Origin: Candidatus Fimenecus sp.
GTDB lineage: Bacteria; Bacillota; Clostridia; Oscillospirales; Acutalibacteraceae
Direction of reading: 5' to 3'
DNA: 64,000 nucleotides
NCBI GenBank assembly: GCA_045533355.1
Contig: JAZSHP010000005.1
Location: 1,036-65,035, forward strand
Both the position numbers and the translations under genes were made by a program. The notes beneath the pieces were generated by a model. The model saw only the letters and a list, made by a program, of their open reading frames with translations. It was not told the DNA's origin and ran no database searches. This document shows positions 26,997 through 47,092 of this stretch, in pieces (position 1 is the first letter of the stretch; each line of letters starts with the position of its first letter).

Positions 26997-27148
26997 TCCT
27001 TTCCAACCTGATATTTAATATAATTCCATTATATCATAAAACAACAAAAAAATAAAGCACACCACGAAATGCACAAGTCCAGTAAAAACGGACAATAGGA
27101 AAAAGACACCTCCTATGGTAGAATAAAACTATCATAGGAGGAATTTTT

Positions 27149-28350: not shown

Positions 28351-28463
28351 TTTTTAATTTTACCTACCATAGGTGCTTTTTTGTACTGTCTGCACAATTT
28401 GGGGCAGTTCAATTCCGAGGTGCTTATATTTTTATTAAGATTTACTGAAAGACTTTTTCAGCA

Positions 28464-31457
28464 TTATGAAAGTGAATTGATAGTTGAAATCTGTTCACCC
28501 TTGATTGTGAATACATACCATTCATCACCAGTGCCGGATGTAGGTGCAGTATATGTTGCAATTACTCTGTTACCTGAATAAACCTTAACCACCGCATTTG
28601 ATGTTGAAAGTGCAGATTCTCCTGAGTAGTTATGTACAACATAGGTATATGTTGTTGCATTTGGCTGATGGATAGTGATTGTTTCAGGTCCATAGCCGTT
28701 TCTGTCGTCAACATCTAATTCAGCTGCTGTTTGCCCATTAAATGTACTGTATTTTCTTTCAAAGTAAACATGTCTGTCAGTACCGTTATCCTTGTACAAG
28801 AGATGTGCGTCAAGGTCGGTTGGACTATCATCCCAAGTAAGAACAATTCTGATTTTATCTGCTTCAACAACAGGAGAAATTGCCATATTTGCATCATTAA
28901 TCGTACCACCGTCTGCTGTAACATTCACATGGGTCTTAATGAAGTTTGACTTTGTGATTTCAAGAGTATACTGACCGGCAGGAAGCTGGAGTGAGTATTT
29001 ACCTGAAGAGTTTGTTGTTGTCTGATAGCCCAAGAAGCTACCTGATGTCTTATTCAAGCCACTGCGGACTTTGATTGTGGCACCTGAAACAGGACTGCCG
29101 TCAAGGGCATTAGAAATAATACCACTTACATTACATATCTGTACTGTTGTTGTTTCTTCTTTCTTAACCATCTTAGCTATTGACGGATATGTGGTTTCAC
29201 CGCCAACCACCTTAACACTTAAGTTCAAATCATTATAATTATTCTTTGACATCTTAAGCACATAGTCACCTACAGGTAATGTCACACTATATACACCGGA
29301 TGAGTTTGTAGTAATTGTTTCAACAATCTTTGAAGTATTACTTGCCTTTACAACCTTAATTGTAACGCCTGAAAGATTTGAGTTAGTTTCACTGTCTCTT
29401 ACTGTACCTGAAACCTTACCCTCTGCCTCTGTAGTTGATTCAGTTGTTGACTCTGTCGTTGTTTCTGTTGTTTCTGTTGTAGTTTCTTCGCCATTTGCAG
29501 GAAGCTTGTTAACAGTTAAAGTAATTTCACTGCCCTTATCCACTCTCTTACCTGCTTCAACAGACTGCTTGAGAACAAGGTCATCAGCAACTGTTTCATC
29601 TTCTGAGTATTCAATATTTACCACAAGACCGAGTTTTTCAAGCTTCTTTTCTGCTTCGTCGGCGTTGAAATACTGAACATCAACAACTCTCACCTGTTCC
29701 TTACCGCGTGAAACTGTTACATAAACATTGTCGCCCTTATTTACGCTCTTGTTTGCTGCAGTTTTCTGTGAAATAATTGAGTCTTTAGGTGCATCGTTGC
29801 TATATTCTGATTCTTCAATAAGAAGATATACGCCTTTTTTGAGAAGCTCTTTTCTTGCTTCCTCAAAATCTTTACCTGTAAGGTCAGGAATTGTTACTTT
29901 TCCGGTTGGTTTTGTTTTAGAGCCCTTTGAAACAACAATTTCGACTTTTTCAGTCTGTTTCAGCTCTGTATTTTCTTTATGGCTCTGACTGATAACGCCA
30001 CCCTTACCAACATTGTCACTATATTCTTCTTTAACCTTTACCTTAAAGCCTTCGTCCTCCATATTCTTGACAGCTGTTTCTTCTGTATAATAAACAGCCT
30101 GCGGAACATAACCTATTTTCGGACCACCGCTGATTTTTACTTCAACGACGTCATCCTTTTCAGTTTTGATACCGCCTTCAGGAGTCTGTTCACAGATAAG
30201 GTCTTTTTCTACTTCTTCCTCAAATTCCTTTTTACCCGTTACAAGCATCTGAAGGTCTTTTTCTTCAAGGAGGTCCTCTGCCTCACTCTTATTCATATTA
30301 AGAATGTCAGGCACTCTTACATAACCTTCAGCAACAGGAGCGTTAGGGAATACAAGTCTGCCGTTTGCAAAACGAACTGTACCTGTAAGGAAGAGTACAG
30401 CAATAATCAACACAAACGATGCAACAGCTGCTGATGCAATCTTTAACCATGTGGGGAATTTTGCAGGGTCTTTATTTACCTTTTCTTTTACTACTGCCTG
30501 ACCTGAAACCAATCCGTTCAAAAATGCTCTTGCAGTCTGAGGTCTGTTCTGCGGATTGAGGTTCAATGCGTTCATAATAGCATTCTGACAAGGAGGAGCA
30601 ATCTTAACACCCTTAGCTGATGGTGGTACAAGAGCATGGTCGCCTCTGTCAATTGACTCTACAGGTGTTACACCTGTAATCATTTTATAGAATGTTGCCG
30701 CTACAGCATAGTTATCTGACCAAGGACCCTGTGGACTGTTCTTCACATACTGTTCAGGTGGAGCATAGCCTCTCTTAACTATAACTGACAAGCTCTTTGA
30801 GTTATATGCTGTTGCATATCTTGCTGAACCGAAGTCAAGAACCTTAATCTTATTATCCTTTGTAACAAAAAGGTTGTCAGGAGAAATATCTCTGTGGATA
30901 ATTCCTGCCTGATGCACTTTATCAAGAGTATTGAGCACGGGCACCATAATTCTCATTGCTGTTTCATAAGGCATAGGACCTGAACGCTTAAGCATACTTG
31001 CAACAGTTTCACCCTCAAGGTATTCCATTACGATATATGCAGTATTATTTTCCTGAAATGTATCATAAATTCTTACAATACCGTCCTCTGATGAGAATTT
31101 TGCAAGTCTCTGTGCTTCCTGAATAAAGCTTTCAAGACCTGATGAGAAGAATCCTCTGCTCTGACCGTCATAAACACTGACTTCTGTGTGACCGGGAATT
31201 CTTGTTGCGAATTCAGATGGCAGATATTCCTTGATTGCCACCTTTGTATTCAACATTGCGTCCCAGCCGATATATGTAACACCAAAACCACCGAAACCGA
31301 GAACCTTACCTACGATATACTTCTTGTGGAGTATTGATTCAGGCTCCATGTGATGTGGCTCTGCTGCTTTTGTACCTCTCACATATCCGCAATGAGGACA
31401 AACAGGGCTGATATTATCATTAAATTCGTTCATACATGACATACATCTGAAGCTCAT
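28464..31457 (-). CDS. Zinc-ribbon / Hanks Ser/Thr kinase / TM / 4x PASTA / 2x carboxypeptidase-regulatory-like / DUF2135-like ectodomain protein
   Basis: It starts with CMSC..CPHC, followed by GFGGFGVTY, VAIKEY, HRDISPDN and DFGSA. After a TM (IASAAVASFVLIIAVLFLTG) come four PASTA-like repeats, a T/E-rich linker and two SG.V.D...G-type beta-sandwich repeats, ending in IRIVLTWDDSPTDLDAHL...GYGPETI. I take the start as ATG 31457; the RBS is poor and the track uses TTG at 31475. Confidence 0.9.
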   Translation of the reverse strand: MSFRCMSCMNEFNDNISPVCPHCGYVRGTKAAEPHHMEPESILHKKYIVGKVLGFGGFGVTYIGWDAMLNTKVAIKEYLPSEFATRIPGHTEVSVYDGQSRGFFSSGLESFIQEAQRLAKFSSEDGIVRIYDTFQENNTAYIVMEYLEGETVASMLKRSGPMPYETAMRIMVPVLNTLDKVHQAGIIHRDISPDNLFVTKDNKIKVLDFGSARYATAYNSKSLSVIVKRGYAPPEQYVKNSPQGPWSDNYAVAATFYKMITGVTPVESIDRGDHALVPPSAKGVKIAPPCQNAIMNALNLNPQNRPQTARAFLNGLVSGQAVVKEKVNKDPAKFPTWLKIASAAVASFVLIIAVLFLTGTVRFANGRLVFPNAPVAEGYVRVPDILNMNKSEAEDLLEEKDLQMLVTGKKEFEEEVEKDLICEQTPEGGIKTEKDDVVEVKISGGPKIGYVPQAVYYTEETAVKNMEDEGFKVKVKEEYSDNVGKGGVISQSHKENTELKQTEKVEIVVSKGSKTKPTGKVTIPDLTGKDFEEARKELLKKGVYLLIEESEYSNDAPKDSIISQKTAANKSVNKGDNVYVTVSRGKEQVRVVDVQYFNADEAEKKLEKLGLVVNIEYSEDETVADDLVLKQSVEAGKRVDKGSEITLTVNKLPANGEETTTETTETTTESTTESTTEAEGKVSGTVRDSETNSNLSGVTIKVVKASNTSKIVETITTNSSGVYSVTLPVGDYVLKMSKNNYNDLNLSVKVVGGETTYPSIAKMVKKEETTTVQICNVSGIISNALDGSPVSGATIKVRSGLNKTSGSFLGYQTTTNSSGKYSLQLPAGQYTLEITKSNFIKTHVNVTADGGTINDANMAISPVVEADKIRIVLTWDDSPTDLDAHLLYKDNGTDRHVYFERKYSTFNGQTAAELDVDDRNGYGPETITIHQPNATTYTYVVHNYSGESALSTSNAVVKVYSGNRVIATYTAPTSGTGDEWYVFTIKGEQISTINSLS

Positions 31458-31569
31458 AATTTTTATTCTGCACAAATACTTTTGTGCTTTCCCCTTTCTT
31501 AATCTATGTTGATTTGCTTTGTATTTATATTAAGTCAAATTTCTTTTAGTAGTAAAATCAATTAATTTA

Positions 31570-32151
31570 TCACTTAAACCAATCCGTCAGTTGGTCCTTT
31601 ATGCCAGATTTCTCTGTTGTTGTAGGCGGTGGTGTTGTAGTCGGTGCTGTTGTAGAGGGTGGCGTTGTGGTTGGTGCTGTAGTTGGTTGAGTTGTAGAAG
31701 GTGCTGTTGTAGCCGGTTTGGTTGTAGATGGTTTAGTTGTGACCGGCTTTGTACCATTTGAATGCTTTTTTGTTGTAGTCTCTTTCTTCTTATCGCCCTT
31801 CTTATCATCCTTTTTCTTATCGTCCTTGAGGGTTTCTTTTTCAGAAACGATGTTTTCAGGCAATCTCAACTGTTCTTCTGTGGTAGTTTCACCTTTAACC
31901 TCCACAGTGCCATTATTGTATTCATAAGTATGGCTTTCTTTTTCTTCATTTTTAAACAAATCTACATTCTTAAAGAGAACGCCCTTTGAGAAACAGAAAA
32001 TATATGAAAAAATCACAACCACTGACATCACTGCCACAACGTGCATCCATACCGGCATTTTATTTTTCTTGGCGGTATTATTTGGAGCTCCGCAATTAGG
32101 ACAGGTCATTGCATGTGAATCATATTCCGTTTTGCAATTATTACAAATCAT
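31570..32151 (-). CDS. Zinc-ribbon / TM / Lys- and Thr/Pro-rich extracellular tail protein
   Basis: ATG at 32151 follows GGGGGA. The protein opens MICNNCKTEYDSHAMTCPNCG. A TM (VWMHVVAVMSVVVIFSYIFCF) is followed by KKKDDKKGDKKK and a long (T/S/P/A)-rich tract. Confidence 0.6.
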   Translation of the reverse strand: MICNNCKTEYDSHAMTCPNCGAPNNTAKKNKMPVWMHVVAVMSVVVIFSYIFCFSKGVLFKNVDLFKNEEKESHTYEYNNGTVEVKGETTTEEQLRLPENIVSEKETLKDDKKKDDKKGDKKKETTTKKHSNGTKPVTTKPSTTKPATTAPSTTQPTTAPTTTPPSTTAPTTTPPPTTTEKSGIKDQLTDWFK

Positions 32152-32194
32152 TTTTTCGTCCCCCATACTCATAAACTTTTAATTACCGATTATA

Positions 32195-34360
32195 TCAATA
32201 ATTATCTTTTACAAATGCTTCAACAGAATCAGTCCATTCTGCAAGTCCCTTTGCAAAGACTTTTTCTTTTGATTTTTCCGAATAAATTATTATACTGTCA
32301 ACACTCGGAAGGTTGCTCAGTGCTTTGTGATACTCCAGCTGACTGTTATAAATATTCTTATTAAGTGAAAGTGTCAGCTGTGAGCACTGATTATCAAGTG
32401 CTAAAATCTGTTGTGCTTCATCACTCAGACAGTATCTGAGATAAAGCATTGCAGCAGACTGACTGCTCTTTGTTCCCTTTGCGGAAATACTCCACACCTG
32501 GTCAAATGAGCCATACCATTTATTTTCGTTTGAAAAGAGATTTTCCTGACTATAAGAAAGGACTAAATCAGACTTTCTTATAGTTTTCATATCCTTACTT
32601 GTACCGATATAATATGCTGCTTTTTTACTTGTGAACTGCTCAATTGCAGTATCATAATCCATCATCTTACCACCCACGTAAGCTCTTTCAAAAATATCTG
32701 TGGCAAGATTATATGTAGCACCCTCGTTTTTCAACGAGCCGTAAAGTGCCTCAAGGCCATCCGGACTCACAACCAATGAATTAAGCTCCGGATTCCTTTG
32801 ACTTAAGCCACTCCAGGAATCAACACCGGAAAGACCTTTGTTATCAGGGCTGTCGGCATATTGAAGATAGACATAAAAACCGAGTGGTAAGCTGTCATAG
32901 CTTGTTCCGTAAATCTCGTGATATTGTTCAAGAAGCTGAATATTATCACCTAATTCATCCACAACCGGTTTAAGACTTGCCTTTTCCACTGTGGCTGAAT
33001 CAACCAAATCACTTCTGAAAAGATTCACACTTTGTCCGTCTTCTATATCTGAAATCACTCTTTGAGCGTAATCGTCTTTTTGAACAAAAACAGTTTCAAG
33101 GGTAATTTTCTTACCGAACTGTTTATTGGCATAATCATAAAAATTCTCTGAAATCTCGTCGTAAACCTGCTCCAAGGCTTTTTTGTCTTCAGAATCCTCA
33201 TAAGGCACATAGGCAACTATTGATTCGCTCTTTGCTATATCACCTTTTACAGACTGATATAAATTATCCTTTTTCTGAGTGACAAATATTAAGCCCACAA
33301 CAATAGCAACAACTGCTACCAGAGCTGATATTACTGACACATTTCTTCTTATTGTTCTTCTCCGTTCTTCTATTTCGGGATAATCTATATTTTTATCCGG
33401 TGACGTCAAGGCAGATACAAGCTCGTCGACAGATTGGAAACGGAGTTTTGGCTTAATAGCCATTGCCTTCATAATGGCAACATCAACATAACCGGGAACA
33501 TCTGACACAACCTTCATAGGAGTAACCATAGTGTCATTCATGGCTCTTTCCAATACAGGTGTAGGTGTTTTTCCCGTTATCATACGATAAAGAGTAGCAC
33601 CCACAGCGTATATATCAGTGTAAGGTCCCTCTATACTCTTTGTTTTATATTGTTCCGGTGGTGCATAACCATCAGAAACCACATTTGTTCGTGTTCTTTC
33701 ATTCTCTTCCACGAACCTTGCTGTTCCAAAATCTATAATTTTGATTTTGTTATCAGCGGTTATTAAAATATTTCTCGGATTAATGTCACGGTGAATAACT
33801 GAACGGTCGTGAAGCACCTTAAGACCACGAAGGACGGGGTCTATTATGGTCATTGCCTCCTCGACAGAAAGCTTTCCACCACTTTTTTTGATATATTCCT
33901 CCAATGAAATACCATTAAGATATTCCATTACAATATATGCAGTTCGATTTTCAGTAAAATATTCATAAACATTTACGATATATGGTTCATTCATAAAATT
34001 CGCCATATTTCGTGCTTCTTCAAGAAATCTGTTAAAGCCTTTCTTAAATTCTTCGGACTTGTCACCCGAAAAAATAGATACATTCTTTTCTCCGGGCGTA
34101 CGGCAAACAAGACTGCCGGGAAAATATTCCTTAATGGCAATTACCCTTCCCAATTTCAAATCAAGAGCCTTATAAATTATGCCGAATCCACCAAAGCCTA
34201 ACACTTCTCCGAGCAGATATCGACTATTAAGCACCGTTCCCGGATACAAGTGATAAGCTTCAACAGGGTCAGGTGCTCCCGTTTTCCCGCAATAGGGACA
34301 AACGGGAGTTTTAAGACTTTTCAATTTAAAACAATTTGTGCAAACTCTTGTTAAGTCCAT
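32195..34360 (-). CDS. Zinc-ribbon / Hanks Ser/Thr kinase / TM / solute-binding-protein-like ectodomain
   Basis: It starts with CTNC..CPYC, followed by GFGGFGIIY, IAIKEY, HRDINPRN and DFGTA. After a TM (VSVISALVAVVAIVVGLIFV) there is a roughly 350-aa ectodomain with SBP-like features (WSISAKGTKSSQSAAMLYLRYCLSDEAQ). Confidence 0.9.
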   Translation of the reverse strand: MDLTRVCTNCFKLKSLKTPVCPYCGKTGAPDPVEAYHLYPGTVLNSRYLLGEVLGFGGFGIIYKALDLKLGRVIAIKEYFPGSLVCRTPGEKNVSIFSGDKSEEFKKGFNRFLEEARNMANFMNEPYIVNVYEYFTENRTAYIVMEYLNGISLEEYIKKSGGKLSVEEAMTIIDPVLRGLKVLHDRSVIHRDINPRNILITADNKIKIIDFGTARFVEENERTRTNVVSDGYAPPEQYKTKSIEGPYTDIYAVGATLYRMITGKTPTPVLERAMNDTMVTPMKVVSDVPGYVDVAIMKAMAIKPKLRFQSVDELVSALTSPDKNIDYPEIEERRRTIRRNVSVISALVAVVAIVVGLIFVTQKKDNLYQSVKGDIAKSESIVAYVPYEDSEDKKALEQVYDEISENFYDYANKQFGKKITLETVFVQKDDYAQRVISDIEDGQSVNLFRSDLVDSATVEKASLKPVVDELGDNIQLLEQYHEIYGTSYDSLPLGFYVYLQYADSPDNKGLSGVDSWSGLSQRNPELNSLVVSPDGLEALYGSLKNEGATYNLATDIFERAYVGGKMMDYDTAIEQFTSKKAAYYIGTSKDMKTIRKSDLVLSYSQENLFSNENKWYGSFDQVWSISAKGTKSSQSAAMLYLRYCLSDEAQQILALDNQCSQLTLSLNKNIYNSQLEYHKALSNLPSVDSIIIYSEKSKEKVFAKGLAEWTDSVEAFVKDNY

Positions 34361-34384
34361 TTAATCAAGCTCCATAGTGCAAAT

Positions 34385-35422
34385 TTATTTCAAATCAAAT
34401 ACATTTTCCTGATTTGCCAAGGAGATTCTTGAGCCTGCTGATAACATTATTTTTTCTCCCTGACCAATTCTTCTTCCATCACGAAGAACAACACCGTTTG
34501 AAGAGTATACAGTTAATTTGTATTTGTCTTTATCTGCAAAATACTGAATACTACAATGTGTTCTGCCGATGTGAACATATTTTTTATCAAAAATAATGTT
34601 ACATTTTTCAGGGTCACGACCTATATAAATAATTTCGTAATCCCCGATTGAAATATCAGCGCCTCGATATTGTCCTGCCACACCAACTATTCGACCTGTC
34701 ATCGAATTAAACTGTGTTGCATAATCATAGTGGTTAACTCTTGCTGTCGGAGTATCCTCATAATCACCGCCGACATTGTTATTGTAATAACCGCCGGCTA
34801 CTTCCTGATTGTAATAATTATAATTAGCATTATTATCCTGATACACAGGAGCATTATTATAATCACCAACAGGTGTTGGGGCACTGTTTGCAACCACTAC
34901 ATCTTCTTCATCCTGACAAGTCAACAACATAACAAGACCTAAAATAGCACAGATAATAAAGGAGATTAAGTTTAAGTATCCGCCCGGTGCATATCCGACA
35001 AATTCGTCCAAAGAAACCATGTTCTCGGTAAAAAAGCCCATATCAATGACTTCTAATGACAGGATTACTCTTGTTGCTACGTGAGTAAACACACCGTAAC
35101 CTGCTGCAAGAATACTTACAACACCCGCAAACTTTGGTTTAAGTACAAATCCCAATATTGATGCAAAAAAGCCGATGAACATAGGAAGAATTGCAGCAAG
35201 GATGATAAAGACAAACAGAACTAACTGCTCATCCTTACCGGAAAGGTCTATCGCATACATAAAAATGTCAAGCATTGAAGCCTTTGCCATGCCACCAAAA
35301 AGAGCATCGTCAAACTCACCGAGAAGTCCTGACAGTTTAAAGAACGGCAGAAAATAGCAGACAATAGCAGCAAAAAAGCCGAACGCTATAAAGCCATTAA
35401 ATAATAATTTCTTCGTTTTCAT
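34385..35422 (-). CDS. Polytopic membrane protein with N/Y-rich linker and C-terminal FHA domain
   Basis: About five TM helices are followed by GDYNNAPVYQDNNANYNYYNQEVAGGYYNNNVGGDY and then an FHA domain (IYIGRDPEKCNIIFD...GRTHCSI...SSNGVVL). Confidence 0.8.
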   Translation of the reverse strand: MKTKKLLFNGFIAFGFFAAIVCYFLPFFKLSGLLGEFDDALFGGMAKASMLDIFMYAIDLSGKDEQLVLFVFIILAAILPMFIGFFASILGFVLKPKFAGVVSILAAGYGVFTHVATRVILSLEVIDMGFFTENMVSLDEFVGYAPGGYLNLISFIICAILGLVMLLTCQDEEDVVVANSAPTPVGDYNNAPVYQDNNANYNYYNQEVAGGYYNNNVGGDYEDTPTARVNHYDYATQFNSMTGRIVGVAGQYRGADISIGDYEIIYIGRDPEKCNIIFDKKYVHIGRTHCSIQYFADKDKYKLTVYSSNGVVLRDGRRIGQGEKIMLSAGSRISLANQENVFDLK

Positions 35423-35463
35423 ATTTCTTCCTCATAAATTTGAGGGTTTCTCAAATTCAAATA

Positions 35464-36102: not shown

Positions 36103-36153
36103 AATAAGTTCTCCTTAAAAATAAAAATATATTTTGAAAAACTATGTTTCCAA

Positions 36154-38594: not shown

Positions 38595-38614
38595 ATTTAT
38601 GCGCCCCCATACTC

Positions 38615-40360
38615 TTAAAATACAATTCTGAACTTAGACAAACCTGCTATAATTTCATCATTGCTTCTCAACTTACGTCTCTTGATAATTTTAACATTGT
38701 TAAGGAGTGTTCCGTTAGCTGAACCAAGGTCATTAATCCAGAATTCACCATTTACATTAACAATTTCAAAATGTACTCGTGACATCTTCATATCATCAAG
38801 ATAAATATCACACTTTTCGGACCTACCCACTACAAGCTTATCAACAATCGTTGTATCAATTAATCTTGCAGTTGCATTTCCGCAGATAATTCTGATTTTT
38901 ATCGGTTTGCCCTGAGGTGCCATAATGTGATGCTTTTCTCTTCTTATTGCAACCTCATGCTGATATTCCACCACATTATTATACATTGGCTGAGGTGGTT
39001 CAGATACAGGCATCTGTGGCTGAGGTTCAACCTCAGAGCTCTTTCTTGTTGCAGCAATTACAATAACCAAAATTGCAATAATTGCTAATACAATAAGAAT
39101 TATCCACCAATATTTCAATAAGAAAACAACCAGGACACTCTTATCACCAAGAGAATATTTTTCATTTCCCACATCAATTGGGTTTTCCTCATTGGCTGAG
39201 TCAGTTACATTGGAAATTTCAATCTGATAGTCATCAGCCTTAGGAAGCTCCATCTTAGGTGTTAAGATTGTGTAATACTCTGTATCAGTAAACACATACT
39301 CTGCTTCTGTGAATGTGATTTTCTGCTTACCGTCACCATACTTGAGTGTGAAATTCTCATAATTATCAGCATGCAGAACATTTTCGGAATAGTAAACATA
39401 TACTTTTCCGTCATCGGATATTTCAATATCCTTAACCCTTGGTGCTTCATCGTCCTTTATCCAACGAGTTGCTTTTACATCAACATTAGCACTTTTATCC
39501 TTAGTTCTTATCATAAGGTTTTTCTTTGAACCGTCAGAACCCTTATTTGACTCAGTGAGCATTGAAACAAGATAAACATTTCTTGTACTGTCAACCAAAC
39601 TATCAAAGGTTTTGCTTACATAAGCTGAACCACTTGCTACAAACACGTCACCGCCTGAGTTTCTTGCAAATGAACCGAGTTCAGAAGCACTGTTGCTTGT
39701 CCCGTTGACACAGAGTGCGTAGATTGGCAATCCGTGACCTGATACAGAATTACGAACTTCCTGACTTGTATTTCCGCCACTGTATTCAACATTTATACCG
39801 TCGGAAACAACAACCGCAAATGAACGTTCGCATTTATCTTCTGTATCGGACTGTGACATATCCACAGCTCTTTTTACTGCATCATAAAGATTTGTCTGAC
39901 CTTCATTGTTTTTCAAGGCCTGAATTTTTTTTGCTCGTGCATCCTTGTTTTCTTCACCGGAAAGGACTGTCTTAATACTTGAACCGAAAGTAATCAATAC
40001 GAGCTTTTCTTTGTCAGTAAGATTATTACTGTAATTCAATAATTTCTTTCTTATTTCAGTGAAGTGAGCACTTGGGATTGAGCTTGAAGTATCCACAAGG
40101 AAATATATTGTAGTCTCATGACTGTTTCTGTTATATTTCTTCAAATCAGTAACTGTAAGAGTTTCTCCGCCCCATTTTGCGAAAATATCACTCTGACTGA
40201 TGGATTCTGTTTCTTCCGACCTGAATTTCAACGTAGCGGTAATGCTTGGCAATACAGGTGAAACCTGTTCAATAATTACACTATCGAGCGCCGATGTGGG
40301 AAATACAAACATCGACATAAGAATAATAACTGAGATGATAAAAGTTATGATTTTTTTCAT
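38615..40360 (-). CDS. Secreted vWA domain / Ig-like region / TM / cytoplasmic FHA protein
   Basis: It has a signal peptide and a vWA domain with MIDAS DTSSS (IYFLVDTSSSIP). After a TM (YWWIILIVLAIIAILVIVIAA) comes a C-terminal FHA domain (LVVGRSEKCDIYLDD..MSRVHFEI...SANGTLLN). The ATG at 40360 overlaps the upstream stop (ATGA). Confidence 0.85.
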   Translation of the reverse strand: MKKIITFIISVIILMSMFVFPTSALDSVIIEQVSPVLPSITATLKFRSEETESISQSDIFAKWGGETLTVTDLKKYNRNSHETTIYFLVDTSSSIPSAHFTEIRKKLLNYSNNLTDKEKLVLITFGSSIKTVLSGEENKDARAKKIQALKNNEGQTNLYDAVKRAVDMSQSDTEDKCERSFAVVVSDGINVEYSGGNTSQEVRNSVSGHGLPIYALCVNGTSNSASELGSFARNSGGDVFVASGSAYVSKTFDSLVDSTRNVYLVSMLTESNKGSDGSKKNLMIRTKDKSANVDVKATRWIKDDEAPRVKDIEISDDGKVYVYYSENVLHADNYENFTLKYGDGKQKITFTEAEYVFTDTEYYTILTPKMELPKADDYQIEISNVTDSANEENPIDVGNEKYSLGDKSVLVVFLLKYWWIILIVLAIIAILVIVIAATRKSSEVEPQPQMPVSEPPQPMYNNVVEYQHEVAIRREKHHIMAPQGKPIKIRIICGNATARLIDTTIVDKLVVGRSEKCDIYLDDMKMSRVHFEIVNVNGEFWINDLGSANGTLLNNVKIIKRRKLRSNDEIIAGLSKFRIVF

Positions 40361-40947
40361 CGTTGCCATTCCCTGCCCTTCTTACAATAAGCAATCATTC
40401 GGAATTTTGAACGACCTATCTCAAAAGTATCTTCACTTTCGATTTTAACCGCATCGTACAAGGTTTTGCCATTGAAAACTGTAGTGCTTGACGGTACAAG
40501 ATAGAATACACACTCTTTTGGTTCAAAAACAATTGAGCAATGATTTTTTCGTGTAATTTCAGGGTCATCATAAATTACAACATCTGAATTGTGCGAACGA
40601 CCGACAAAGTTTCTGCCTGCATAAAGGCAATAGCTTCTGCCATATTCAGGTCCTTCCTCACAAACAAGCCAACCTACCACAGGATTTACTCCGTCTTGTG
40701 AAAATGATAAACCGATTGTCTTTTCGTTTTCTTCAACATTTTCAACATACATATCAGTAAGCTGATTTCCAAGCTCACGGTCACCTGCAATCTGTTCATA
40801 CAGGGTAACCTCACTGTTTATATCGGTTGAGCCAGTACCCATCATATCTTCAAAGAATGTTTTCACCGTTGTTGAATCACAATGTGGGCATTCCGCATAT
40901 GCGTCACTGTCATAGAAATGTCCGTTTTCGCATCTGATTACATTCAT
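40357..40947 (-). CDS. Zinc-ribbon-like / FHA domain protein (paralog of 35464..36102)
   Basis: ATG at 40947 follows GGGAG. It opens MNVIRCENGHFYDSDAYAECPHC, contains VVGWLVCEEG, and has an FHA domain (NFVGRSHNSDVVI...ITRKNHCSIV). Confidence 0.8.
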   Translation of the reverse strand: MNVIRCENGHFYDSDAYAECPHCDSTTVKTFFEDMMGTGSTDINSEVTLYEQIAGDRELGNQLTDMYVENVEENEKTIGLSFSQDGVNPVVGWLVCEEGPEYGRSYCLYAGRNFVGRSHNSDVVIYDDPEITRKNHCSIVFEPKECVFYLVPSSTTVFNGKTLYDAVKIESEDTFEIGRSKFRMIAYCKKGREWQR

Positions 40948-40966
40948 TTTATATCTCCCTTTCCAT

Positions 40967-41698
40967 TCAGACAATTTTTATTGCAATTGCTGAATAGTTA
41001 TCCATTTTTTTGTTTTTACCATTCTTCTCTACTATGGTTTTCATTTTTTCGAGCCAATCTGAGGAGGTTGAGGAAAATATATAGCTTTTCTTCATATCTT
41101 TTTCCAAAAGCAATTCCCAGAAACCATCACTACAGAGTAAAAATCCGTCACCTTTTTTTACAGGTATACCCGGATAATGAATTTCCACTCTCGGTGCTTC
41201 GCCTTCCATTCCCAATGCCCGGAGAAGCTTATTTCTGTCAGGATTTCCCCTTATCTGTTCCGGTGTAATTTCACCCATTACCACCATCATCTGAGGAACA
41301 CTGTGGTCCTTTGTCTGTTCTTTAATTGCAAATCGGCTGAATCTGTACAATCTTGAATCACCCACATGAGCCCAGTAAGCAACATCATTTTCGATTATCA
41401 GAACTACAAGGGTGGTTTTTATTCCTCTTATTGTATGTTCAGATATCTGCATACTCAAAAGCTTGTCGTGAATACCCGAAAAGCAATCTGCAATTACTTT
41501 TTCATTTATAGCTGCACAGGTGCTGAAATAATTCTGTGCAAATGCAACAGCCGTCCTGGAAGCAACATCACCTTCACCATGACCACCAAGACCATCGGCC
41601 AAAATGAAGCACTGACGATTTTCTTTATTCACAAAACCAACGCTGTCCTCGTTGATTTGGTAACTGCCATTAAGTGTTAAATAACTGTAATCAATCAT
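40967..41698 (-). CDS. PP2C-family Ser/Thr phosphatase (soluble)
   Basis: ILADGLGGHGEGDVAS, VGDSRLY, LLCSDGFWE and DNYSAIAI. The likely ATG at 41698 follows GGAGAG; the track start at 41737 has no RBS. Confidence 0.9.
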   Translation of the reverse strand: MIDYSYLTLNGSYQINEDSVGFVNKENRQCFILADGLGGHGEGDVASRTAVAFAQNYFSTCAAINEKVIADCFSGIHDKLLSMQISEHTIRGIKTTLVVLIIENDVAYWAHVGDSRLYRFSRFAIKEQTKDHSVPQMMVVMGEITPEQIRGNPDRNKLLRALGMEGEAPRVEIHYPGIPVKKGDGFLLCSDGFWELLLEKDMKKSYIFSSTSSDWLEKMKTIVEKNGKNKKMDNYSAIAIKIV

Positions 41699-41769
41699 TT
41701 TAAGGTAACTCTCCGTTTTTTTCTTTCTGAAATTCATAATCAGAAAGAGTAAAAGACTGTTGTTTATGG

Positions 41770-42489
41770 TTAAATCGTATCAAATCTGATATATGCCTTG
41801 AATAATTCTCTTACCTGATGATACCTGTTCTTTGCAATAGGCACCTCAAGGCCTGATTCCATAACGATTTTATTATTTGTAAACTGAATTATATGGTCCA
41901 TATTTACAATGAAGCTCTGATGAGGTCGTATGAAATTTTTATAATTACTCAAGGAAGCTTCAATCTCATCAATTTTTTTATAAAAGCTTATCTGCGTACC
42001 CTCCGCCATTACAGTTACCTTTCTTCCGCTACCTGTAAAGGCTTCAACCTTGTTTACATTCACACGCAAATAATTGTTCTGGGACTTAAAATAGAAGAAT
42101 GTATTAATCTTCTCAGACCTTGATATATAACGGTCAATGGTCTTTTGCAATTTCGAGACAGATACCGGTTTTATCAGGTAATCGAAGGCATTATACTTGT
42201 ACCCGTCGAGAACATATTCTCTGTCTCCCGTAAGAAAGATTATGTCACAGTCAAGGTTGTTTTTTCTGATGAATTCTGCAACCTTAAGACCATTGATTTT
42301 CGGCATATTGATATCAAGGAAAATTAAATCAGCAGAGAAGTTGTTGTTGCTGATTGCCTCAACAACCTCCACACCATCCTGATAGGTTGATATATCAAAT
42401 TCAGTTCGGTCAAAAAGAATTGTAATAAGTGCTGACTCAACTTCCTTCATATTGTAGACATTGTCGTCACATAAGGCTATTCTGAACAC
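41770..42489 (-). CDS. LytTR-family response regulator (REC + LytTR DNA-binding domain); no cognate histidine kinase in the window
   Basis: GTG at 42489 lies 8 nt after GAGGAG and gives MFRIALCDDN. The acceptor context is LIFLDINMP. The C-terminal LytTR domain contains IRPHQSFIVN. Confidence 0.85.
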   Translation of the reverse strand: MFRIALCDDNVYNMKEVESALITILFDRTEFDISTYQDGVEVVEAISNNNFSADLIFLDINMPKINGLKVAEFIRKNNLDCDIIFLTGDREYVLDGYKYNAFDYLIKPVSVSKLQKTIDRYISRSEKINTFFYFKSQNNYLRVNVNKVEAFTGSGRKVTVMAEGTQISFYKKIDEIEASLSNYKNFIRPHQSFIVNMDHIIQFTNNKIVMESGLEVPIAKNRYHQVRELFKAYIRFDTI

Positions 42490-42630
42490 CCGGATTTCTC
42501 CTCTTTTCAAAGTAATCTCAAGTTATTTACACGACATTTTTCTCTTGTATATACAATAGCATTGTTTGGAAAAAATATCTAGAAATGTAATAAAAGGGAT
42601 AAAAGTTGTAACATTTAGGCTCGAGTCCTA

Positions 42631-44499
42631 TTATCTTCTGTCCTTCTTAACTCTTGTAAGTATTAAACCACTTGCAATTGCACACACAACAACAAAGGCA
42701 ATAAGAATGAGCCAGATGCCCACAAGGTTACCCGGTGTTGAAACAAACAAGTCTTTTATTCTTGTCATTTCGTCACCCATTTGTAATGCAATTTCCGGGT
42801 TTTTAAGCATAAGTGCCATACGGCTTTCGTTAAGTTTATATGTTGCTGCAAGAGCACCTATTCCCCATTTACTAATCATAATACCTGCAAATTTGTCCAT
42901 TGCATCACCCAGGTCAAAAAGAACACCTGAGAAAACAATCTGAACAATAAGAATAATAGGAATAAATGTGTTTGCTGTAGAGCTGTTTTTAACAACTGAA
43001 GAAATCAACAATGCAATCGCATCGGAAGCAAATGTAACAAGGAACATTGTAATATAAACTTCAAGTGCTGAGCTTGGAAGTATCACACCTGTTGTAGGAT
43101 AAACCTTATCCCGAACAGATATTGAGAAAATCAGCATAACCACAAGCATCTGAACAGCACATACCATACCCTGAACAACAAGCTTTGAGATAATATATGA
43201 GCTGAGTCTCAGATTGGTCATATATTCTCGTTTAAGGATATTTCTTTCCTTACAAATTTCCTGAACGGAATTACAGATACCAACGAAAATAGCAACACAA
43301 ACCAACATAAACAAGCCTGTCTGAGTACCTGAGAAGTCGGCAAGCTCGCCGTCATTTTTGAATCCGCCATTAGGCTCTTCCTCATCAACTTCTTTTTCAA
43401 GCTTACGGATAAGTGAAGCATTTTCCTGAAGCTTTTTAGTTTTCCAGCCTTCTACACCCTGATTGGCAACGTCAAAGCCCTTACCGTCATCAGTACCGAT
43501 AGCTGAAAACTCTGATAATATTTCTTTATCGTAAACACATTTGAATGTAGTATCGGTAATTTCATCGTCATCAACCATACCGATAATGTTACCAAAATAT
43601 TCATTATCACTATTTTTTGATTCAATAGTACCTGCAAAATATGTATACTGCACGGAGCCCTTAATAACACTACCAACAATACCGCCGACGCATCTTCCGT
43701 CCACCTTGATATCGGCACGGCTGTAGCAATTTCTTACTGTTGCCTCATCGTCACCGTCGAGGTTTCCGACAATACCACCTACATAATCACTTTTTACATC
43801 AATCTTACTATCTACAGAATAACAGTTTTCAACAAGGCCTTTTTCCAAGAAACCTACCACAAGACCCACGCACTCACTGTTTCCTTTATCAACTATTTTT
43901 GCGTTTTCGATACCAATATTGTTAATTTCAGCATCCTTACCTGAAACTCTGCCAAAGAAGCCTACACAATCTTCACCTGTTTCAAGAACAAAGTTACTGA
44001 TAATATGACCATTACCTTCAAATTTACCTGTAAACGGTTCACTACTTGTACCCAATGGCTTAATTGTATGTCCGTTCATATCAACATCGCAGTTGAGATA
44101 ATAGGTCTTTTTCAACCATTCACCCTTTGCATTTGCAATAAACTGAAGGTCTGCCGGTGAGTTGATTGAATACTCATTTCCGTCACTATCCATAGGAATA
44201 AGCTGTGGCTGTTGCGGTAAATTACCATCCCACTCTTTTACATTATCCTTTTTGTCTTCATCAGATTCCTCAATATCTTCATATTCAACATATTCCCATG
44301 AAAGTATAGGATATCCGTCGTTTATCTGATTATCAACTTCTCCGCAAAACATATCACCTGATGCAACAAGTGTAACAACAATAATAGTCAACACAGGGAT
44401 AGCAATTGTAAGAGCTAAATTTTGTTTATCATTAAAGAACAATTTCAAATATCTTGAAATCAAGACATTTGCTTGTCTTATAAATCCTGCTTTTTTCAA
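42631..44499 (-). CDS. ABC-2-type transporter permease with a roughly 340-aa GLUG-repeat (beta-helix-like) ectodomain inserted after TM1
   Basis: TM1 is followed by repeated ..VG(G/L/F)(I/V/F)(V/G)G.. units (CVGFFGRVSG, CVGLVVGFLEKG, YVGGIVGNLDG, CVGGIVGSVIKG). Five C-terminal TM helices are typical of ABC2_membrane. The likely TTG start at 44499 follows GAGG. Confidence 0.8.
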   Translation of the reverse strand: MKKAGFIRQANVLISRYLKLFFNDKQNLALTIAIPVLTIIVVTLVASGDMFCGEVDNQINDGYPILSWEYVEYEDIEESDEDKKDNVKEWDGNLPQQPQLIPMDSDGNEYSINSPADLQFIANAKGEWLKKTYYLNCDVDMNGHTIKPLGTSSEPFTGKFEGNGHIISNFVLETGEDCVGFFGRVSGKDAEINNIGIENAKIVDKGNSECVGLVVGFLEKGLVENCYSVDSKIDVKSDYVGGIVGNLDGDDEATVRNCYSRADIKVDGRCVGGIVGSVIKGSVQYTYFAGTIESKNSDNEYFGNIIGMVDDDEITDTTFKCVYDKEILSEFSAIGTDDGKGFDVANQGVEGWKTKKLQENASLIRKLEKEVDEEEPNGGFKNDGELADFSGTQTGLFMLVCVAIFVGICNSVQEICKERNILKREYMTNLRLSSYIISKLVVQGMVCAVQMLVVMLIFSISVRDKVYPTTGVILPSSALEVYITMFLVTFASDAIALLISSVVKNSSTANTFIPIILIVQIVFSGVLFDLGDAMDKFAGIMISKWGIGALAATYKLNESRMALMLKNPEIALQMGDEMTRIKDLFVSTPGNLVGIWLILIAFVVVCAIASGLILTRVKKDRR

Positions 44500-44534
44500 A
44501 ACACACACCTCATTATAACGATTATCTTTTAAAA

Positions 44535-46175
44535 TTATTTCATTACCATACTTCTGTACTTATTTACATACCCATTTACATCTTGAGAGATTTTCTCGTA
44601 AGCATCAGAAAGGTTGTCAACCTCAAAGAATTTCTTTGCATCTTCTGGTGAACCATAGAAGCACAAGCTTCCTCCCGGTGCCATGAAAATAATCTTGTCA
44701 AACAAATGAATATTCTGCAATGTATGAGTAATTGCAATAATCGTCTTTCCTCGTTGTGATGAAAGCATCTGTAACTGCTTCATAAGATTTGTTTCTGCCT
44801 CAGGGTCAAGACCTGATGTAGGTTCGTCAAGGAAGAATAACAATGGGTCAGAAATCAACTCAACCGCAATAGATGCACGTTTTCTCTGTCCGCCACTAAG
44901 CTTTTTGATGAGTGTATCCTTCTGTTTTTCAAGTGCCATAGCCTGTAAAACTTCGTTTACACGCTGATTGATTTCAGCCTTTGTAATATCCTTTGGTAAT
45001 CGAAGCTTTGCAACATAAACCAACATATCAAACATTGTCAAATTATCATAAACAATGTCTTGCTGTGGCACATAGCCGATTTGTGATTTATAAACCTGAT
45101 AATTCTTATACAAGTCATTACCATTGAAATATACAGTACCACTTGTTGCAGGTTCAAAGCCATTGATTGCGTTCATAAGTGTTGTTTTACCGGCACCTGA
45201 ACCACCAAGAACAGCTACAAGCTCACCGGGATAAATAGTAAGAGAAACATCCTGTAATATGTATTTCTTATCTCCGCCATTGATACCTGTACCCTTCTTG
45301 CAAGGAACAATTCTTGAAAGATTTTCTACGCGAAGCTCAACACCACCACGACGAGCATGAACATCCGCCGGTAATTTCTGATTTTGTACAGACTTTGAAC
45401 GTGCATCGTGAAGATTTGTAACAGGTTTGTCCTCAATCCAGACTGATTTCTCTCTCTGTACAGCTTCAACAGGTGGATTTACATCATATATTGACTTTGG
45501 TGTACAATAAATCAACGCTGTTTTCAGATTTATGATTTTTGTGGAACGGATTACAACAGTATCATATTCCTTAAAAGGGATTGCCACACCCGGTTTAATT
45601 AAAGAACCGTTGAGGATTGTACCATTGGAGCTCTTTAAGTCAGTAATGAAGGTTTTGCCCTGTGAATCCCTTGAAACAAGAGCATGTCTTCTTGACGCAG
45701 AAAGCTCTGCTAAAACAATATCACACTGAGAAGGGTCTCTACCAATTAAGATTTTAGGATGTGATGAAGTTAAAGAACAAGCATTCCAGACATAGTCATT
45801 TCTTGTACTTGTTGAAAAGAGAATGTTAACAGTTTTGTCCCCTGTAACAGAGTTCACACCGATTGTAAGAATATCACCATCACGCAATTTTTGTGCTCTT
45901 GACGACATATTAGGCTCTTTCGGAATTTTCTTACCATTAAGAAATGTACCGTTTACATTTACACAATCAGTATAGTAATATTCCCCACGATAGTAGTTAA
46001 ATATTCCGTGTTGTGATGAAACAAGCTCGGAATCAAGTAAAACATCACACTTATTCCCCGGTTTTCTTCTGCCTATCGTTACCTGTGGCTGATTAATCAG
46101 TACACTTTTGATTTCGTTACCGCGGTCAAAGAAAACTAACTGTGCATAACGACTCTGGTAATTGTTTGCAGCCAT
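44535..46175 (-). CDS. FHA-FHA-ABC transporter ATP-binding protein (Rv1747-like N-terminal architecture)
   Basis: Two FHA domains are present (VTIGRRKPGNKCDVLL..VSSQHG...NVNGTFLNG and ILIGRDPSQCDIVL..SASRRHA...SSNGTILNG). They are followed by Walker A GGSGAGKTT, signature LSGGQRKR and Walker B LFFLDEPTSGLD. The ATG follows AGAGGGGA. Confidence 0.9.
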   Translation of the reverse strand: MAANNYQSRYAQLVFFDRGNEIKSVLINQPQVTIGRRKPGNKCDVLLDSELVSSQHGIFNYYRGEYYYTDCVNVNGTFLNGKKIPKEPNMSSRAQKLRDGDILTIGVNSVTGDKTVNILFSTSTRNDYVWNACSLTSSHPKILIGRDPSQCDIVLAELSASRRHALVSRDSQGKTFITDLKSSNGTILNGSLIKPGVAIPFKEYDTVVIRSTKIINLKTALIYCTPKSIYDVNPPVEAVQREKSVWIEDKPVTNLHDARSKSVQNQKLPADVHARRGGVELRVENLSRIVPCKKGTGINGGDKKYILQDVSLTIYPGELVAVLGGSGAGKTTLMNAINGFEPATSGTVYFNGNDLYKNYQVYKSQIGYVPQQDIVYDNLTMFDMLVYVAKLRLPKDITKAEINQRVNEVLQAMALEKQKDTLIKKLSGGQRKRASIAVELISDPLLFFLDEPTSGLDPEAETNLMKQLQMLSSQRGKTIIAITHTLQNIHLFDKIIFMAPGGSLCFYGSPEDAKKFFEVDNLSDAYEKISQDVNGYVNKYRSMVMK

Positions 46176-46324
46176 ATTTATCCCCTCTGTCCTTTGTTTT
46201 TATGTCTGTTTTTCAGATTTCAAGGTAATATTTATACCCCTTCAATTGAGCAATTTCCCATTAAAAAAATCCACTTTTTAATAGAGTAGATTACAAATGA
46301 ATACTATTACCCGATTATTTCTGC

Positions 46325-46353
46325 AATATAGCACAAACGATTTCTGTTGTCAA
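46325..46353 (-). promoter_or_regulatory. Sigma-A-type promoter of the kinase/FHA supercluster
   Basis: On the minus strand the sequence reads TTGACA (46353-46348), a 17-nt spacer, then TATATT (46330-46325). It sits about 150 nt upstream of the first ATG (46175) and immediately downstream of the preceding gene's terminator. Confidence 0.5.
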
Positions 46354-46382
46354 TAAAACCAATTTTTTTTGTAAGATAGCAC

Positions 46383-46413
46383 AAAAAAATGCACCTTCAT
46401 AAGTTGAAGATGC
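46383..46413 (-). terminator. Intrinsic terminator after the cohesin-dockerin gene
   Basis: On the minus strand a 9-bp stem with one G-U pair (GCATCTTCA-acuua-TGAAGGTGC) is followed by ATTTTTTTG. Confidence 0.6.
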
Positions 46414-46433
46414 ATAATACATTTTTAAATTTT

Positions 46434-47072: not shown

Positions 47073-47092
47073 AAATTTCACCTTGTAATAAG

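Follow-up and report, generated by a model that had tools for sequence, protein, structure and literature searches.

The stretch examined here (the window) comprises 64,000 nucleotides of contig JAZSHP010000005.1 from Candidatus Fimenecus sp. (Clostridia), and it contains a locus of 13 minus-strand open reading frames (ORFs), numbered g1 to g13 in order of transcription, which extends from position 46175 to 28464 and encodes Hanks-type Ser/Thr kinases, PP2C phosphatases and a series of FHA proteins. That the locus represents a genuine, evolutionarily maintained functional unit is supported by the retention of its gene order in relatives whose g6 protein is 59%, 46% and about 25-30% identical, as well as in many metagenome loci. 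With some reservation, we favour the interpretation that it is this lineage's enlarged version of a widespread clostridial phosphothreonine (pThr) signalling module, the products of which would assemble into a membrane complex driving an Rv1747-like exporter and a transcriptional output through a LytTR regulator.

The preliminary description of this DNA had put forward 13 co-directional, tightly packed genes encoding three kinases, two PP2Cs, seven FHA domains distributed over six proteins, an FHA-FHA-ABC ATPase together with a GLUG permease, an orphan LytTR regulator and six N-terminal zinc ribbons, and this inventory was borne out. The intergenic gaps measure -13 to +120 nt before start-codon corrections (moving the start of g3 to a GTG at ~42489 gives a gap of ~141 nt upstream of it), and both proposed ATGA stop/start overlaps, at 37197-37194 (g7/g8) and 40360-40357 (g5/g6), were read directly in the sequence. 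Every domain claim was confirmed by searches with Pfam hidden Markov models, which placed Pkinase in g7, g11 and g13, PP2C in g4 and g8, FHA in g1 (twice), g5, g6, g7, g9 and g10, VWA in g6, ABC_tran in g1, Glug and ABC2_membrane in g2, Response_reg and LytTR in g3, and four PASTA domains in g13. The six zinc ribbons correspond to six Zn-binding motifs, being CxxC-x10-12-CxxC in g7, g11, g12 and g13 and C-x3-H-x9-C-x2-C in g5 and g9. The Gly-loop, catalytic Lys, HRD and DFG motifs of the kinases are intact, as are the metal-site motifs of the PP2Cs, and the canonical GR...SxxH...N signature can be read in four of the FHA domains (both of g1 and those of g6 and g7). The GC content of the locus matches that of its flanks and does not change across its boundaries, which gives no indication of a recent acquisition. 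The 13 genes are listed below, TM denoting transmembrane.

44535..46175, minus strand: g1, FHA-FHA-ABC ATPase, 546 aa (Pfam FHA twice, 1e-32; ABC_tran, 1e-33)
42631..44508, minus strand: g2, ABC-2 permease with TM1, a ~345-aa extracellular GLUG-containing domain and 5-6 TM (Pfam ABC2_membrane, ABC2_membrane_3, Glug)
41770..42510, minus strand: g3, orphan receiver (REC)-LytTR response regulator (Pfam Response_reg and LytTR)
40967..41737, minus strand: g4, soluble PP2C phosphatase (Pfam PP2C_2, 1.8e-16)
40357..40974, minus strand: g5, Zn-knuckle (C-x3-H-x9-C-x2-C)-linker-FHA adaptor (Pfam FHA; start likely ATG 40947)
38615..40369, minus strand: g6, signal peptide, beta-sandwich and vWA domain with metal-ion-dependent adhesion site (MIDAS), second beta-sandwich, TM, disordered linker, FHA (Pfam VWA and FHA)
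37194..38594, minus strand: g7, soluble Zn-ribbon, Hanks kinase, Pro-rich linker, FHA (Pfam Pkinase, 8.6e-36; FHA, 8e-12)
36154..37197, minus strand: g8, N-terminal TM anchor, PP2C phosphatase (Pfam PP2C, PP2C_2, SpoIIE)
35464..36102, minus strand: g9, Zn-knuckle-linker-FHA adaptor (C6, H10, C20, C23 and T85 invariant in 61 sequences)
34385..35422, minus strand: g10, polytopic membrane domain (4-5 TM), low-complexity linker, FHA (Pfam FHA, 1.5e-8; hydropathy)
32195..34360, minus strand: g11, Zn-ribbon, Hanks kinase, TM, ~355-aa ectodomain (Pfam Pkinase, 3.7e-44)
31570..32172, minus strand: g12, Zn-ribbon, TM, extracellular Lys/Glu-rich then Thr/Pro-rich tail (CxxC...CxxC; TM 43-61)
28464..31475, minus strand: g13, Zn-ribbon, Hanks kinase, TM, four PASTA, two CarboxypepD_reg-like domains, C-terminal domain (Pfam PASTA x4, 3e-47; Pkinase; CarbopepD_reg_2)

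An all-against-all comparison of the products revealed three sets of paralogues. The adaptors g5 and g9 are related over their full length (37% identity, e-46), g4 and g8 are paralogous PP2Cs (27%, e-23), and g7, g11 and g13 are paralogous over the Zn ribbon and kinase (36-41%, e-66 to e-79). The centre of the locus is therefore the tandem duplication of a four-gene unit consisting of a PP2C, a Zn-knuckle-FHA protein, a membrane FHA protein and a Zn-ribbon kinase. Unit A comprises the PP2C g4, the Zn-knuckle-FHA protein g5, g6 with its vWA outside and its FHA inside the membrane, and the Zn-ribbon (ZnR)-kinase-FHA protein g7, while unit B comprises the membrane-anchored PP2C g8, the Zn-knuckle-FHA protein g9, the polytopic TM-FHA protein g10 and the ZnR-kinase-TM-ectodomain protein g11. 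The third ZnR kinase g13, the small ZnR-TM partner g12, the exporter g1-g2 and the LytTR regulator g3 are additions of this lineage to the core.

The conservation of this arrangement was examined in the loci of relatives (L001-L020) compared with that of the window, following the suggestion in the preliminary description that neighbourhood searches be seeded with the vWA-FHA and ZnR-FHA proteins; the gene order turned out to be kept both in relatives and in metagenome loci. The signature protein of the locus family is g6, for which 23 close relatives were retrieved in a word-indexed search. The same gene order is found at g6 identities of 59% (L001) and 46% (L002, L003 and L007), and a recognisable core persists at ~25-30% (L004, L008-L013), the order PP2C, ZnR-FHA, vWA-FHA, Kin-FHA, PP2C, ZnR-FHA, TM-FHA, Kin being conserved over loci from 98% down to ~25% identity. 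Unit B lies ahead of unit A in L010-L012, with both units intact, and a fused transporter of FHA-FHA, nucleotide-binding domain (NBD) and transmembrane domain (TMD) is located between the units in L009 and L013; that the parts are retained through such rearrangement argues for their functional coupling. A Candidatus Fimenecus sp. metagenome-assembled genome (MAG; Clostridia, L006) is the nearest genome, being 93-98% identical and showing the same arrangement of ftsZ, cohesin-dockerin gene and locus.

Wider searches extended the family considerably. Homologues of g9, at ~50% identity to it, form at least 1278 clusters at 90% identity, with sources including Ruminococcus sp., Oscillospiraceae and Clostridiales Family XIII, and three of their neighbourhoods contain the ordered core together with extra FHA proteins and giant Big-domain surface proteins, one of them with a LytTR regulator as well. 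A profile search for the vWA-TM-FHA architecture yielded 3035 representatives (50%-identity clusters) at E ≤ 1e-30, the best 150 of which all lie below 1e-92 and are mostly full-length and mostly 550-600 aa long. A metagenome scan seeded with a ZnR-FHA alignment returned more than 569 loci, and the 31 with ≥16 kb of sequence, several of them near-duplicates, were scored. A PP2C is present in all 31, two ZnR-FHA proteins in 27, and two PP2Cs, a vWA-FHA protein (by a strict criterion) and a kinase-FHA protein in 22 each; nearly all the scored genes are co-directional. Among the accessories, FHA-ABC was met in 14/31, the PASTA kinase in 12/31 and LytTR in 7/31, and the ABC exporter, PASTA kinase and LytTR regulator are optional, recurrent add-ons. 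The vWA-TM-FHA protein and the core were found in Clostridia and in gut, rumen and fermentation metagenomes. Judged by gene order and domain content, a seven-gene core of PP2C, ZnR-FHA, vWA-FHA, Kin-FHA, PP2C, ZnR-FHA and TM-FHA, usually plus a further kinase, is widespread, and its recurrence across loci makes the 13-gene locus of the window one elaborated member of a large family.

The transcription signals of the locus are as follows.

46325..46353, minus strand: putative sigma-70 promoter, TTGACA-17 nt-TATATT with extended -10 TG (11/12 match)
28412..28425, minus strand: operon terminator 5' arm, AAGCACCTCGGAAT, separated from the 3' arm by IS3 (sequence reading)
27070..28411, plus strand: IS3-family insertion sequence (Pfam HTH_28, rve, HTH_21, rve_2; terminal inverted repeats)
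27044..27069, minus strand: terminator 3' arm and U-run, TTTCGTGGTGTGCTTTATTTTTTTGT, the split terminator's part on the far side of IS3

The near-consensus promoter, noted earlier, proved to be the top-scoring promoter-like site in the 19.6 kb scanned (27000-46600); it lies ~149 nt upstream of the g1 ATG and directly after the terminator (46415-46389) of the upstream cohesin-dockerin gene. A consensus scan of the two largest intergenic gaps disclosed no coding-strand promoter-like or terminator-like site. The 150-nt 5' untranslated region has no Rfam match and folds no better than its shuffles (z = -0.76), no riboswitch or leader RNA was detected by Rfam in the locus at E ≤ 1 or in the whole window at gathering score, and a tRNA scan found none. 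One strong promoter, clean largest gaps and one terminal terminator render a single transcript plausible; the promoter at 46353 probably serves all 13 genes, and a single operon is the simplest reading predicted from these signals.

The hairpin and U-run described earlier as flanking an IS3 element can now be placed more precisely. No intact terminator was found in the window 3' of g13, and in L020, an IS-free relative with 93-95% protein identity, a perfect hairpin, AAGCACCTCGG-AATTT-CCGGGGTGCTT-TGTTGT, with a T-rich tail stands 11 nt past the stop codon. When the two arms in the window are rejoined, they fold at -14.2 kcal/mol (z = -3.8, with 0/200 shuffles equally stable). The intact hairpin of L020 and the fold of the rejoined arms show that IS3 has inserted in the terminator loop. 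The element (orfA 27149-27499, orfB 27496-28350) is present as a single copy within the window and is not a component of the signalling system. Transcription of the 13 genes now probably reads antisense into the transposase genes and on toward uvrC.

Within unit A, the phosphatase g4 carries the metal-site motifs DGLGG, GDSR, CSDG and DN, and the family to which g5 and g9 belong has an invariant CHCC motif and FHA core. As the earlier account of g6 as an extracellular MIDAS vWA-TM-FHA protein had held, its vWA is flanked by a Sec-type signal peptide and a TM helix (hydropathy and AlphaFold2 (AF2) model, mean predicted local distance difference test (pLDDT) 78), from which the vWA is predicted to be extracellular and the FHA cytoplasmic. 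The MIDAS residues D93-x-S95-x-S97, T159 and D190 are invariant in 17 homologues, and so are the pThr-site residues of the FHA domain. Foldseek matched the model to inter-alpha-inhibitor heavy chain 1 (ITIH1; 1.6e-11) and to ArnB (8s05_B; 2.2e-10 over 331 aligned columns), the latter being the fourth-ranked chain and the second distinct protein in the list, with the anthrax-toxin receptor and integrin I-domains ranking after it. The TM and FHA tail of g6 aligns over the whole NCBIfam FhaB/FipA profile (59.8 bits, cut-off 125). The kinase g7 retains its Gly-loop, K79, HRD and DFG and has no TM segment.

In unit B, g8 possesses a TM segment at residues 8-30 followed by a basic stretch and intact catalytic motifs, whilst g9 is conserved more strongly than any other protein of the locus family. 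The AF2 model of g9 shows the Zn knuckle and FHA domain at pLDDT >90 with a disordered linker between them; the FHA domain superposes on those of FhaA, GarA and OdhI with a TM-score of ~0.9 and a root-mean-square deviation of 1.1-1.9 Å, and T85 sits just upstream of it. The position equivalent to g10 is occupied by DUF4234-FHA proteins in L017 and L018. For the kinase domain of g11, the nearest solved relative is the kinase PpkA of a type VI secretion system (T6SS; 5hnv, 2.8e-41, vs ~1e-33 for PknB). Its ectodomain had been proposed to resemble a solute-binding protein (SBP); the layout of kinase and ectodomain stood, and the SBP identity received sub-threshold matches. A seven-sequence profile of the ectodomain gave collinear PDB matches, none of them significant, to the family-1 sugar-binding proteins 8art (0.0039), 3quf (0.015) and 7v09 (0.041), a tentative suggestion of a family-1 SBP fold. 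A word-indexed protein search with the same ectodomain (357 aa, 32198-33268) gave no match at E ≤ 1e-5, although homologues with 42-96% identity over the segment exist in L001, L006 and L020, so that the blank looks like a gap in search sensitivity and not like biology.

Turning to the accessory genes, the FHA domains of g1 (residues ~31-108 and 143-208, followed by ABC_tran at 307-454) are both canonical (GR, SxxH, NG), and S/T residues 111, 115 and 122 of the linker between them are conserved in 5-6 of six homologues; the top NCBIfam subfamily of its NBD is TIGR00955 (White/ABCG), below cut-off. The permease g2 has hydropathic TM segments at 31-49 and in a later region at 397-616, and its L001 homologue is 81% identical. 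The true start of g3 is probably the GTG at ~42489 (239 aa, as called in L020), which is preceded by a ribosome-binding site, GAGGAG. Candidate acceptor-pocket residues of g3, picked out by eye, are DD 15-16, D66 in FLDINMP, T93 and K114; with 83.6 bits against a BtsR cut-off of 246 (NCBIfam), it is not a BtsR equivalog. Its orphan status also stood, there being no histidine kinase among the 13 products, in the immediate flanks or among the called genes of L001, L018 and L020; a LytTR regulator is present in L001, L006, L018 and L020. The small protein g12, in which Zn_Ribbon_1 falls below the Pfam cut-off, has 32 Thr among residues 62-200, and its ZnR and TM part is kept in L001 (47% identity over 79 aa).

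The start of g13 is likely ATG 31457 and its TM segment spans residues 346-364. It has the kinase-TM-PASTA architecture of the PrkC/Stk1/PknB family, for which an N-terminal Zn ribbon and CarboxypepD_reg domains are atypical, and at 330 bits against a cut-off of 450 for NCBIfam Stk1/PknB_PASTA_kin (NF033483; g11 scores 209 bits) it does not qualify as an equivalog of the housekeeping PASTA kinase. The stretch 686-989 shares 30% identity with the ectodomain of an FHA-FHA-TM-CarboxypepD_reg protein at 16452-19937 of L018, so that a shared ectodomain occurs joined to a kinase in one case and to FHA domains in the other. The last ~120 residues (~880-1003; window 28464-28830) have no Pfam match, and an assignment of this C-terminus as DUF2135-like was dropped for lack of Pfam support at E ≤ 0.01.

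How far known systems resemble the locus was considered next. The preliminary description had presented the combination of parts as without a characterised counterpart. Literature searches aimed at the locus found no description of it or of the seven-gene core; PADLOC v2, run on g1-g10, gave only generic kinase, ABC-ATPase and PP2C domain matches and none at all for g2, g3, g5, g6, g8, g9 and g10; and none of the 10 products scanned reached an NCBIfam equivalog cut-off. Neither the conserved multi-paralogue architecture nor its abundance in gut Clostridia has apparently been described, all the parts being known domain types in known uses. The claim of uniqueness was nevertheless overstated, because the locus elaborates a very common core. 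The precedents named at that time (Rv1747/PknF, the actinobacterial fhaA-fhaB-pstP-pknAB cluster and T6SS PpkA/PppA/Fha1) are apt as analogies, PpkA being the nearest solved kinase relative.

Closest in arrangement to the exporter is the mycobacterial pair in which PknF positively regulates Rv1747 through the FHA domains of Rv1747 (PMC3138270, PMC8339232). Here too, two N-terminal FHA domains precede the ATPase of an ABCG/ABC-2-type exporter, the short linker between them bears conserved S/T residues, Ser/Thr kinases are encoded in the same predicted operon, and the fused FHA-FHA-NBD-TMD architecture of Rv1747 itself occurs in L009 and L013. Unlike Rv1747, the window system encodes its permease, which bears the ~345-aa GLUG ectodomain, in a gene of its own, it contains three kinases, two PP2Cs and five additional FHA proteins, and its exporter is optional in the locus family (14/31); moreover, the Rv1747 FHA (6cah) matched only at E = 2.8e-4, eighth among FHA matches, which speaks of no specific sequence kinship. 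The T6SS threonine phosphorylation pathway, PpkA-PppA-Fha1 with TagQRST (PMC7817224), likewise has a Hanks kinase, a PP2C and an FHA scaffold controlling the assembly of a membrane machine, with a vWA outside the cytoplasmic membrane and an ABC-like TagST pair, and PpkA-like kinase, PP2C and FHA genes are adjacent in the window. The window organism is, however, Gram-positive, with no T6SS genes in the flanks examined, its vWA is carried on an FHA protein and not on a kinase, and its TagH/VI_FHA matches (TIGR03354) reach 30-31 bits where the cut-off is 120.

The actinobacterial cluster consists of fhaA-fhaB(fipA)-pstP-rodA-pbpA-pknA-pknB. Both loci combine several FHA adaptors, one of them a TM-FHA protein, with a membrane PP2C and at least two Hanks kinases, among which is a PASTA kinase. 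That of the window differs in having Zn-ribbon N-termini on its kinases and adaptors and a vWA ectodomain, in the lack of any FTSW_RODA_SPOVE or transpeptidase domain (rodA/pbpA) among its 13 products, ftsW lying 5.6 kb upstream, in that the best FhaB/FipA score, that of g6, is below cut-off, and in that its dcw adjacency is not conserved. In archaea, the zinc-finger-FHA protein ArnA and the vWA/beta-sandwich protein ArnB are regulated by Hanks-type kinases and PP2A (PMC6509490), and the overlap of the Zn-domain-FHA gene g5 with the beta-sandwich and vWA gene g6 is reminiscent of that pair. The g6 vWA is, by contrast, predicted to be extracellular and fused via a TM to its own FHA, so that the vWA could not bring g6 and g5 together in a cytoplasmic complex of the ArnA-ArnB kind, and the phosphatases are PP2C instead of PP2A. 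A specific kinship of the Zn-knuckle-FHA proteins with ArnA was also rejected, as ArnA fell outside the top 50 structural matches of g9, whose FHA is closer to GarA, OdhI and FhaA. Last among these comparisons, Deinococcus radiodurans DRA0331-0334 is a four-gene vWA-STPK-FHA-PP2C operon (STPK, Ser/Thr protein kinase), a single set whose vWA protein is described as stand-alone and lacking an FHA fusion (bioRxiv 10.64898/2026.01.23.701218). The same four domain types occur in one predicted operon in the window, and the PP2C-kinase adjacency of TerY-P triads is found as well, but the sole vWA is the ectodomain of a TM-FHA protein and not a stand-alone cytoplasmic protein, the unit is duplicated, Zn-knuckle-FHA adaptors are added and the conserved block has at least seven genes. 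A similar FHA/PP2C/kinase cluster is presumably present in Clostridium acetobutylicum (CAC0403-0410), receiving only a passing mention in the D. radiodurans preprint.

Under the favoured reading, the receptor kinases g11 and g13 would be activated by extracellular ligands, candidates being muropeptide or other cell-wall material sensed by the PASTA domains of g13 and a soluble saccharide-like molecule bound by the SBP-like domain of g11. The kinases would then auto- and cross-phosphorylate Thr residues in disordered cytoplasmic linkers, on which the FHA domains of g6, g10, g7 and g1 could dock, leading to the assembly of a membrane complex that would thereby be coupled to whatever ligand the MIDAS-vWA of g6 binds outside. 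GarA and OdhI are autoinhibited by an N-terminal pThr, and g5 and g9 may act as similar switches via their invariant Thr 85, with the two PP2Cs, soluble g4 and membrane-anchored g8, resetting the system. As one output, the ABCG-type exporter would be activated or clustered, in the way that PknF acts on Rv1747. As a second, transcription would be driven via the LytTR regulator, possibly after its receiver domain has been phosphorylated on Ser/Thr, response regulators being phosphorylated by Ser/Thr kinases in Firmicutes.

Several points weigh against this reading. The mechanism, the sensor roles of the ectodomains and the gating by FHA domains are inferred from domain content alone, and no ligand can be named for the vWA, GLUG or CarboxypepD_reg domains. 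The core occurs without the ABC exporter in 17/31 and without LytTR in 24/31 of the metagenome loci, a set that was not dereplicated, so neither can be a universal output. The FHA domains of g5, g9 and g10 deviate at the Ser/His pThr-contact motif (S-x3-H in g5 and g9, G in place of S in g10) and may bind pThr in a non-canonical way. The SBP_bac_8 match of the g11 ectodomain reaches 19.9 bits, under the Pfam cut-off of 27, and an internal promoter in the ~141-nt g2-g3 gap would still be compatible with the consensus scan.

Fair consideration should also be given to what else the locus could do. It could serve cell-wall or division control as a clostridial counterpart of the actinobacterial cluster, its PASTA domains sensing peptidoglycan precursors and its FHA adaptors acting on the divisome or elongasome, a proposal that draws on the four PASTA domains of g13, the FhaB/FipA-like tail of g6, the PstP-like membrane-anchored PP2C g8 and the position, a single gene away from ftsZ and from the dcw genes ftsW-murG-murA-ftsQ, both here and in L006. 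This adjacency, from which a link to division had initially been drawn, proved lineage-specific: it is shared only with the near-identical L006, ftsZ is absent upstream of the locus in L001, L002 and L007 and from all 31 metagenome loci (0/31), and a terminator and the cohesin-dockerin gene separate the locus from ftsZ even in the window. As rodA and pbpA are also missing from the locus, the FhaB match and the score of g13 against housekeeping Stk1/PknB both stay below cut-off, and a PASTA kinase accompanies only 12 of the 31 loci, we regard a division role as unlikely. A defence function against phages or in conflict, of the kinase/PP2C/vWA type (TerY-P-like, Stk2-like or MADS-like), might be read from the co-location of vWA, PP2C and kinase genes, the adjoining IS element, PADLOC matches to mad6, mad3, PD-T4-6 and MkoA, and NCBIfam matches to MAD6 and PglW kinases. 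These matches are generic and far below family cut-offs (MAD6, 142 bits vs 460), the vWA, ZnR-FHA and TM-FHA proteins have no PADLOC or NCBIfam defence match, and the locus encodes no nuclease, protease, NADase or other effector. Unlike patchy defence islands, the core is ~50% identical across very many Clostridia in a stable gene order; in the window, the GC content matches that of the flanks, which are housekeeping genes (dcw and uvrC). As the PADLOC scan of g1-g10 gave generic domain matches only, a defence role was rejected, and it is deemed highly improbable.

Less readily separated from the favoured reading is the control of adhesion or of surface proteins, whereby the vWA, GLUG and CarboxypepD_reg domains, and the Big domains of relatives, would bind ligands on host, fibre or neighbouring cells, the cytoplasmic FHA/kinase/PP2C machinery would relay or set their state in integrin-like outside-in or inside-out signalling, and the display of large surface proteins encoded nearby may be controlled too. 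The beta-sandwich and vWA ectodomain of g6, with its invariant MIDAS, resembles ITIH1, the anthrax-toxin receptor and integrin I-domains; the vWA-FHA protein is a core component (22/31); and relatives carry, inside or adjoining the core, giant Big-domain proteins (over 2300 and 2951 aa) along with S8 peptidase-CarboxypepD_reg-Big_2-VWA-FHA and FHA-CarboxypepD_reg proteins. The giant surface proteins are, however, absent from the window, and vWA and Ig-like domains are so common in Gram-positive surface proteins that their association here may be incidental; the idea overlaps the best explanation instead of excluding it, and as an account of its own it appears doubtful. Bolder still, and quite improbable in our estimation, is the proposal that the seven-gene core might be a bacterial transmembrane adhesion-receptor machine akin to integrins, in which the MIDAS-vWA would be coupled bidirectionally to a cytoplasmic pThr/FHA scaffold, perhaps related to the ArnA-ArnB (Sec23/24-like) pair turned 'inside-out' across the membrane, and would govern the attachment of gut Clostridia to fibre, mucus or each other.

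To our knowledge, what is known of Hanks-kinase/PP2C/FHA signalling in Firmicutes comes almost entirely from one housekeeping pair, PrkC/Stp. The pThr signalling module favoured here would add to it a conserved membrane unit of several kinases, several phosphatases and seven FHA domains, whose signature protein falls into thousands of sequence clusters and for which no name, curated family or experimental study was found. Should it indeed control export, surface display or adhesion in the dominant fibre-degrading gut Clostridia, it would constitute a major layer of regulation in the microbiome that has so far gone unexplored. Handles that bear on a long-standing gap, namely the role of non-PrkC Ser/Thr kinases in Clostridia, are offered by the adaptor's invariant CHCC knuckle and Thr 85, the receptor's MIDAS site and the Rv1747-like head of the exporter.

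A few observations on the relatives may be recorded. In L004 (30% GC) and L005, the PASTA-kinase homologue is distributed over three or four consecutive ORFs (8834-12040 in L004), frameshifted or split, and the locus is followed by two choline-binding-repeat proteins. In L001, an additional SH3_3-kinase-PA-IL (lectin-like) gene at 2357-4183 lies immediately upstream of the FHA-ABC gene and supplies a fourth kinase, whose putative sugar-binding ectodomain is of another kind. The MAG labels among L007, L009 and L010-L012 include 'uncultured Coriobacteriaceae', 'Holdemanella biformis' and 'uncultured Bacteroides sp.', meaning either that the locus has spread beyond Clostridia or that the bins or labels are in error.

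The 12 flanking ORFs scanned belong to the dcw, cohesin-dockerin, uvrC, IS3 or other housekeeping groups or have no Pfam hit. Upstream, at 47167-53041 on the minus strand, lies the dcw block of ftsW, murG, a MurA-like gene of the EPSP-synthase family, ftsQ/divIB and ftsZ; downstream, at 21562-26996 on the same strand, are uvrC and genes for a HAD hydrolase, a Cons_hypoth95-family (RsmD-like) methyltransferase, a cytidylyltransferase-like (CoaD-like) protein and a pseudouridine synthase. One further gene stands between ftsZ and the locus.

46434-47081, minus strand: cohesin and type-I dockerin protein, 215 aa, with its own terminator

Its product, 86% identical in L006, is a small adaptor of the cellulosome type in a lineage of uncultured gut Clostridia.

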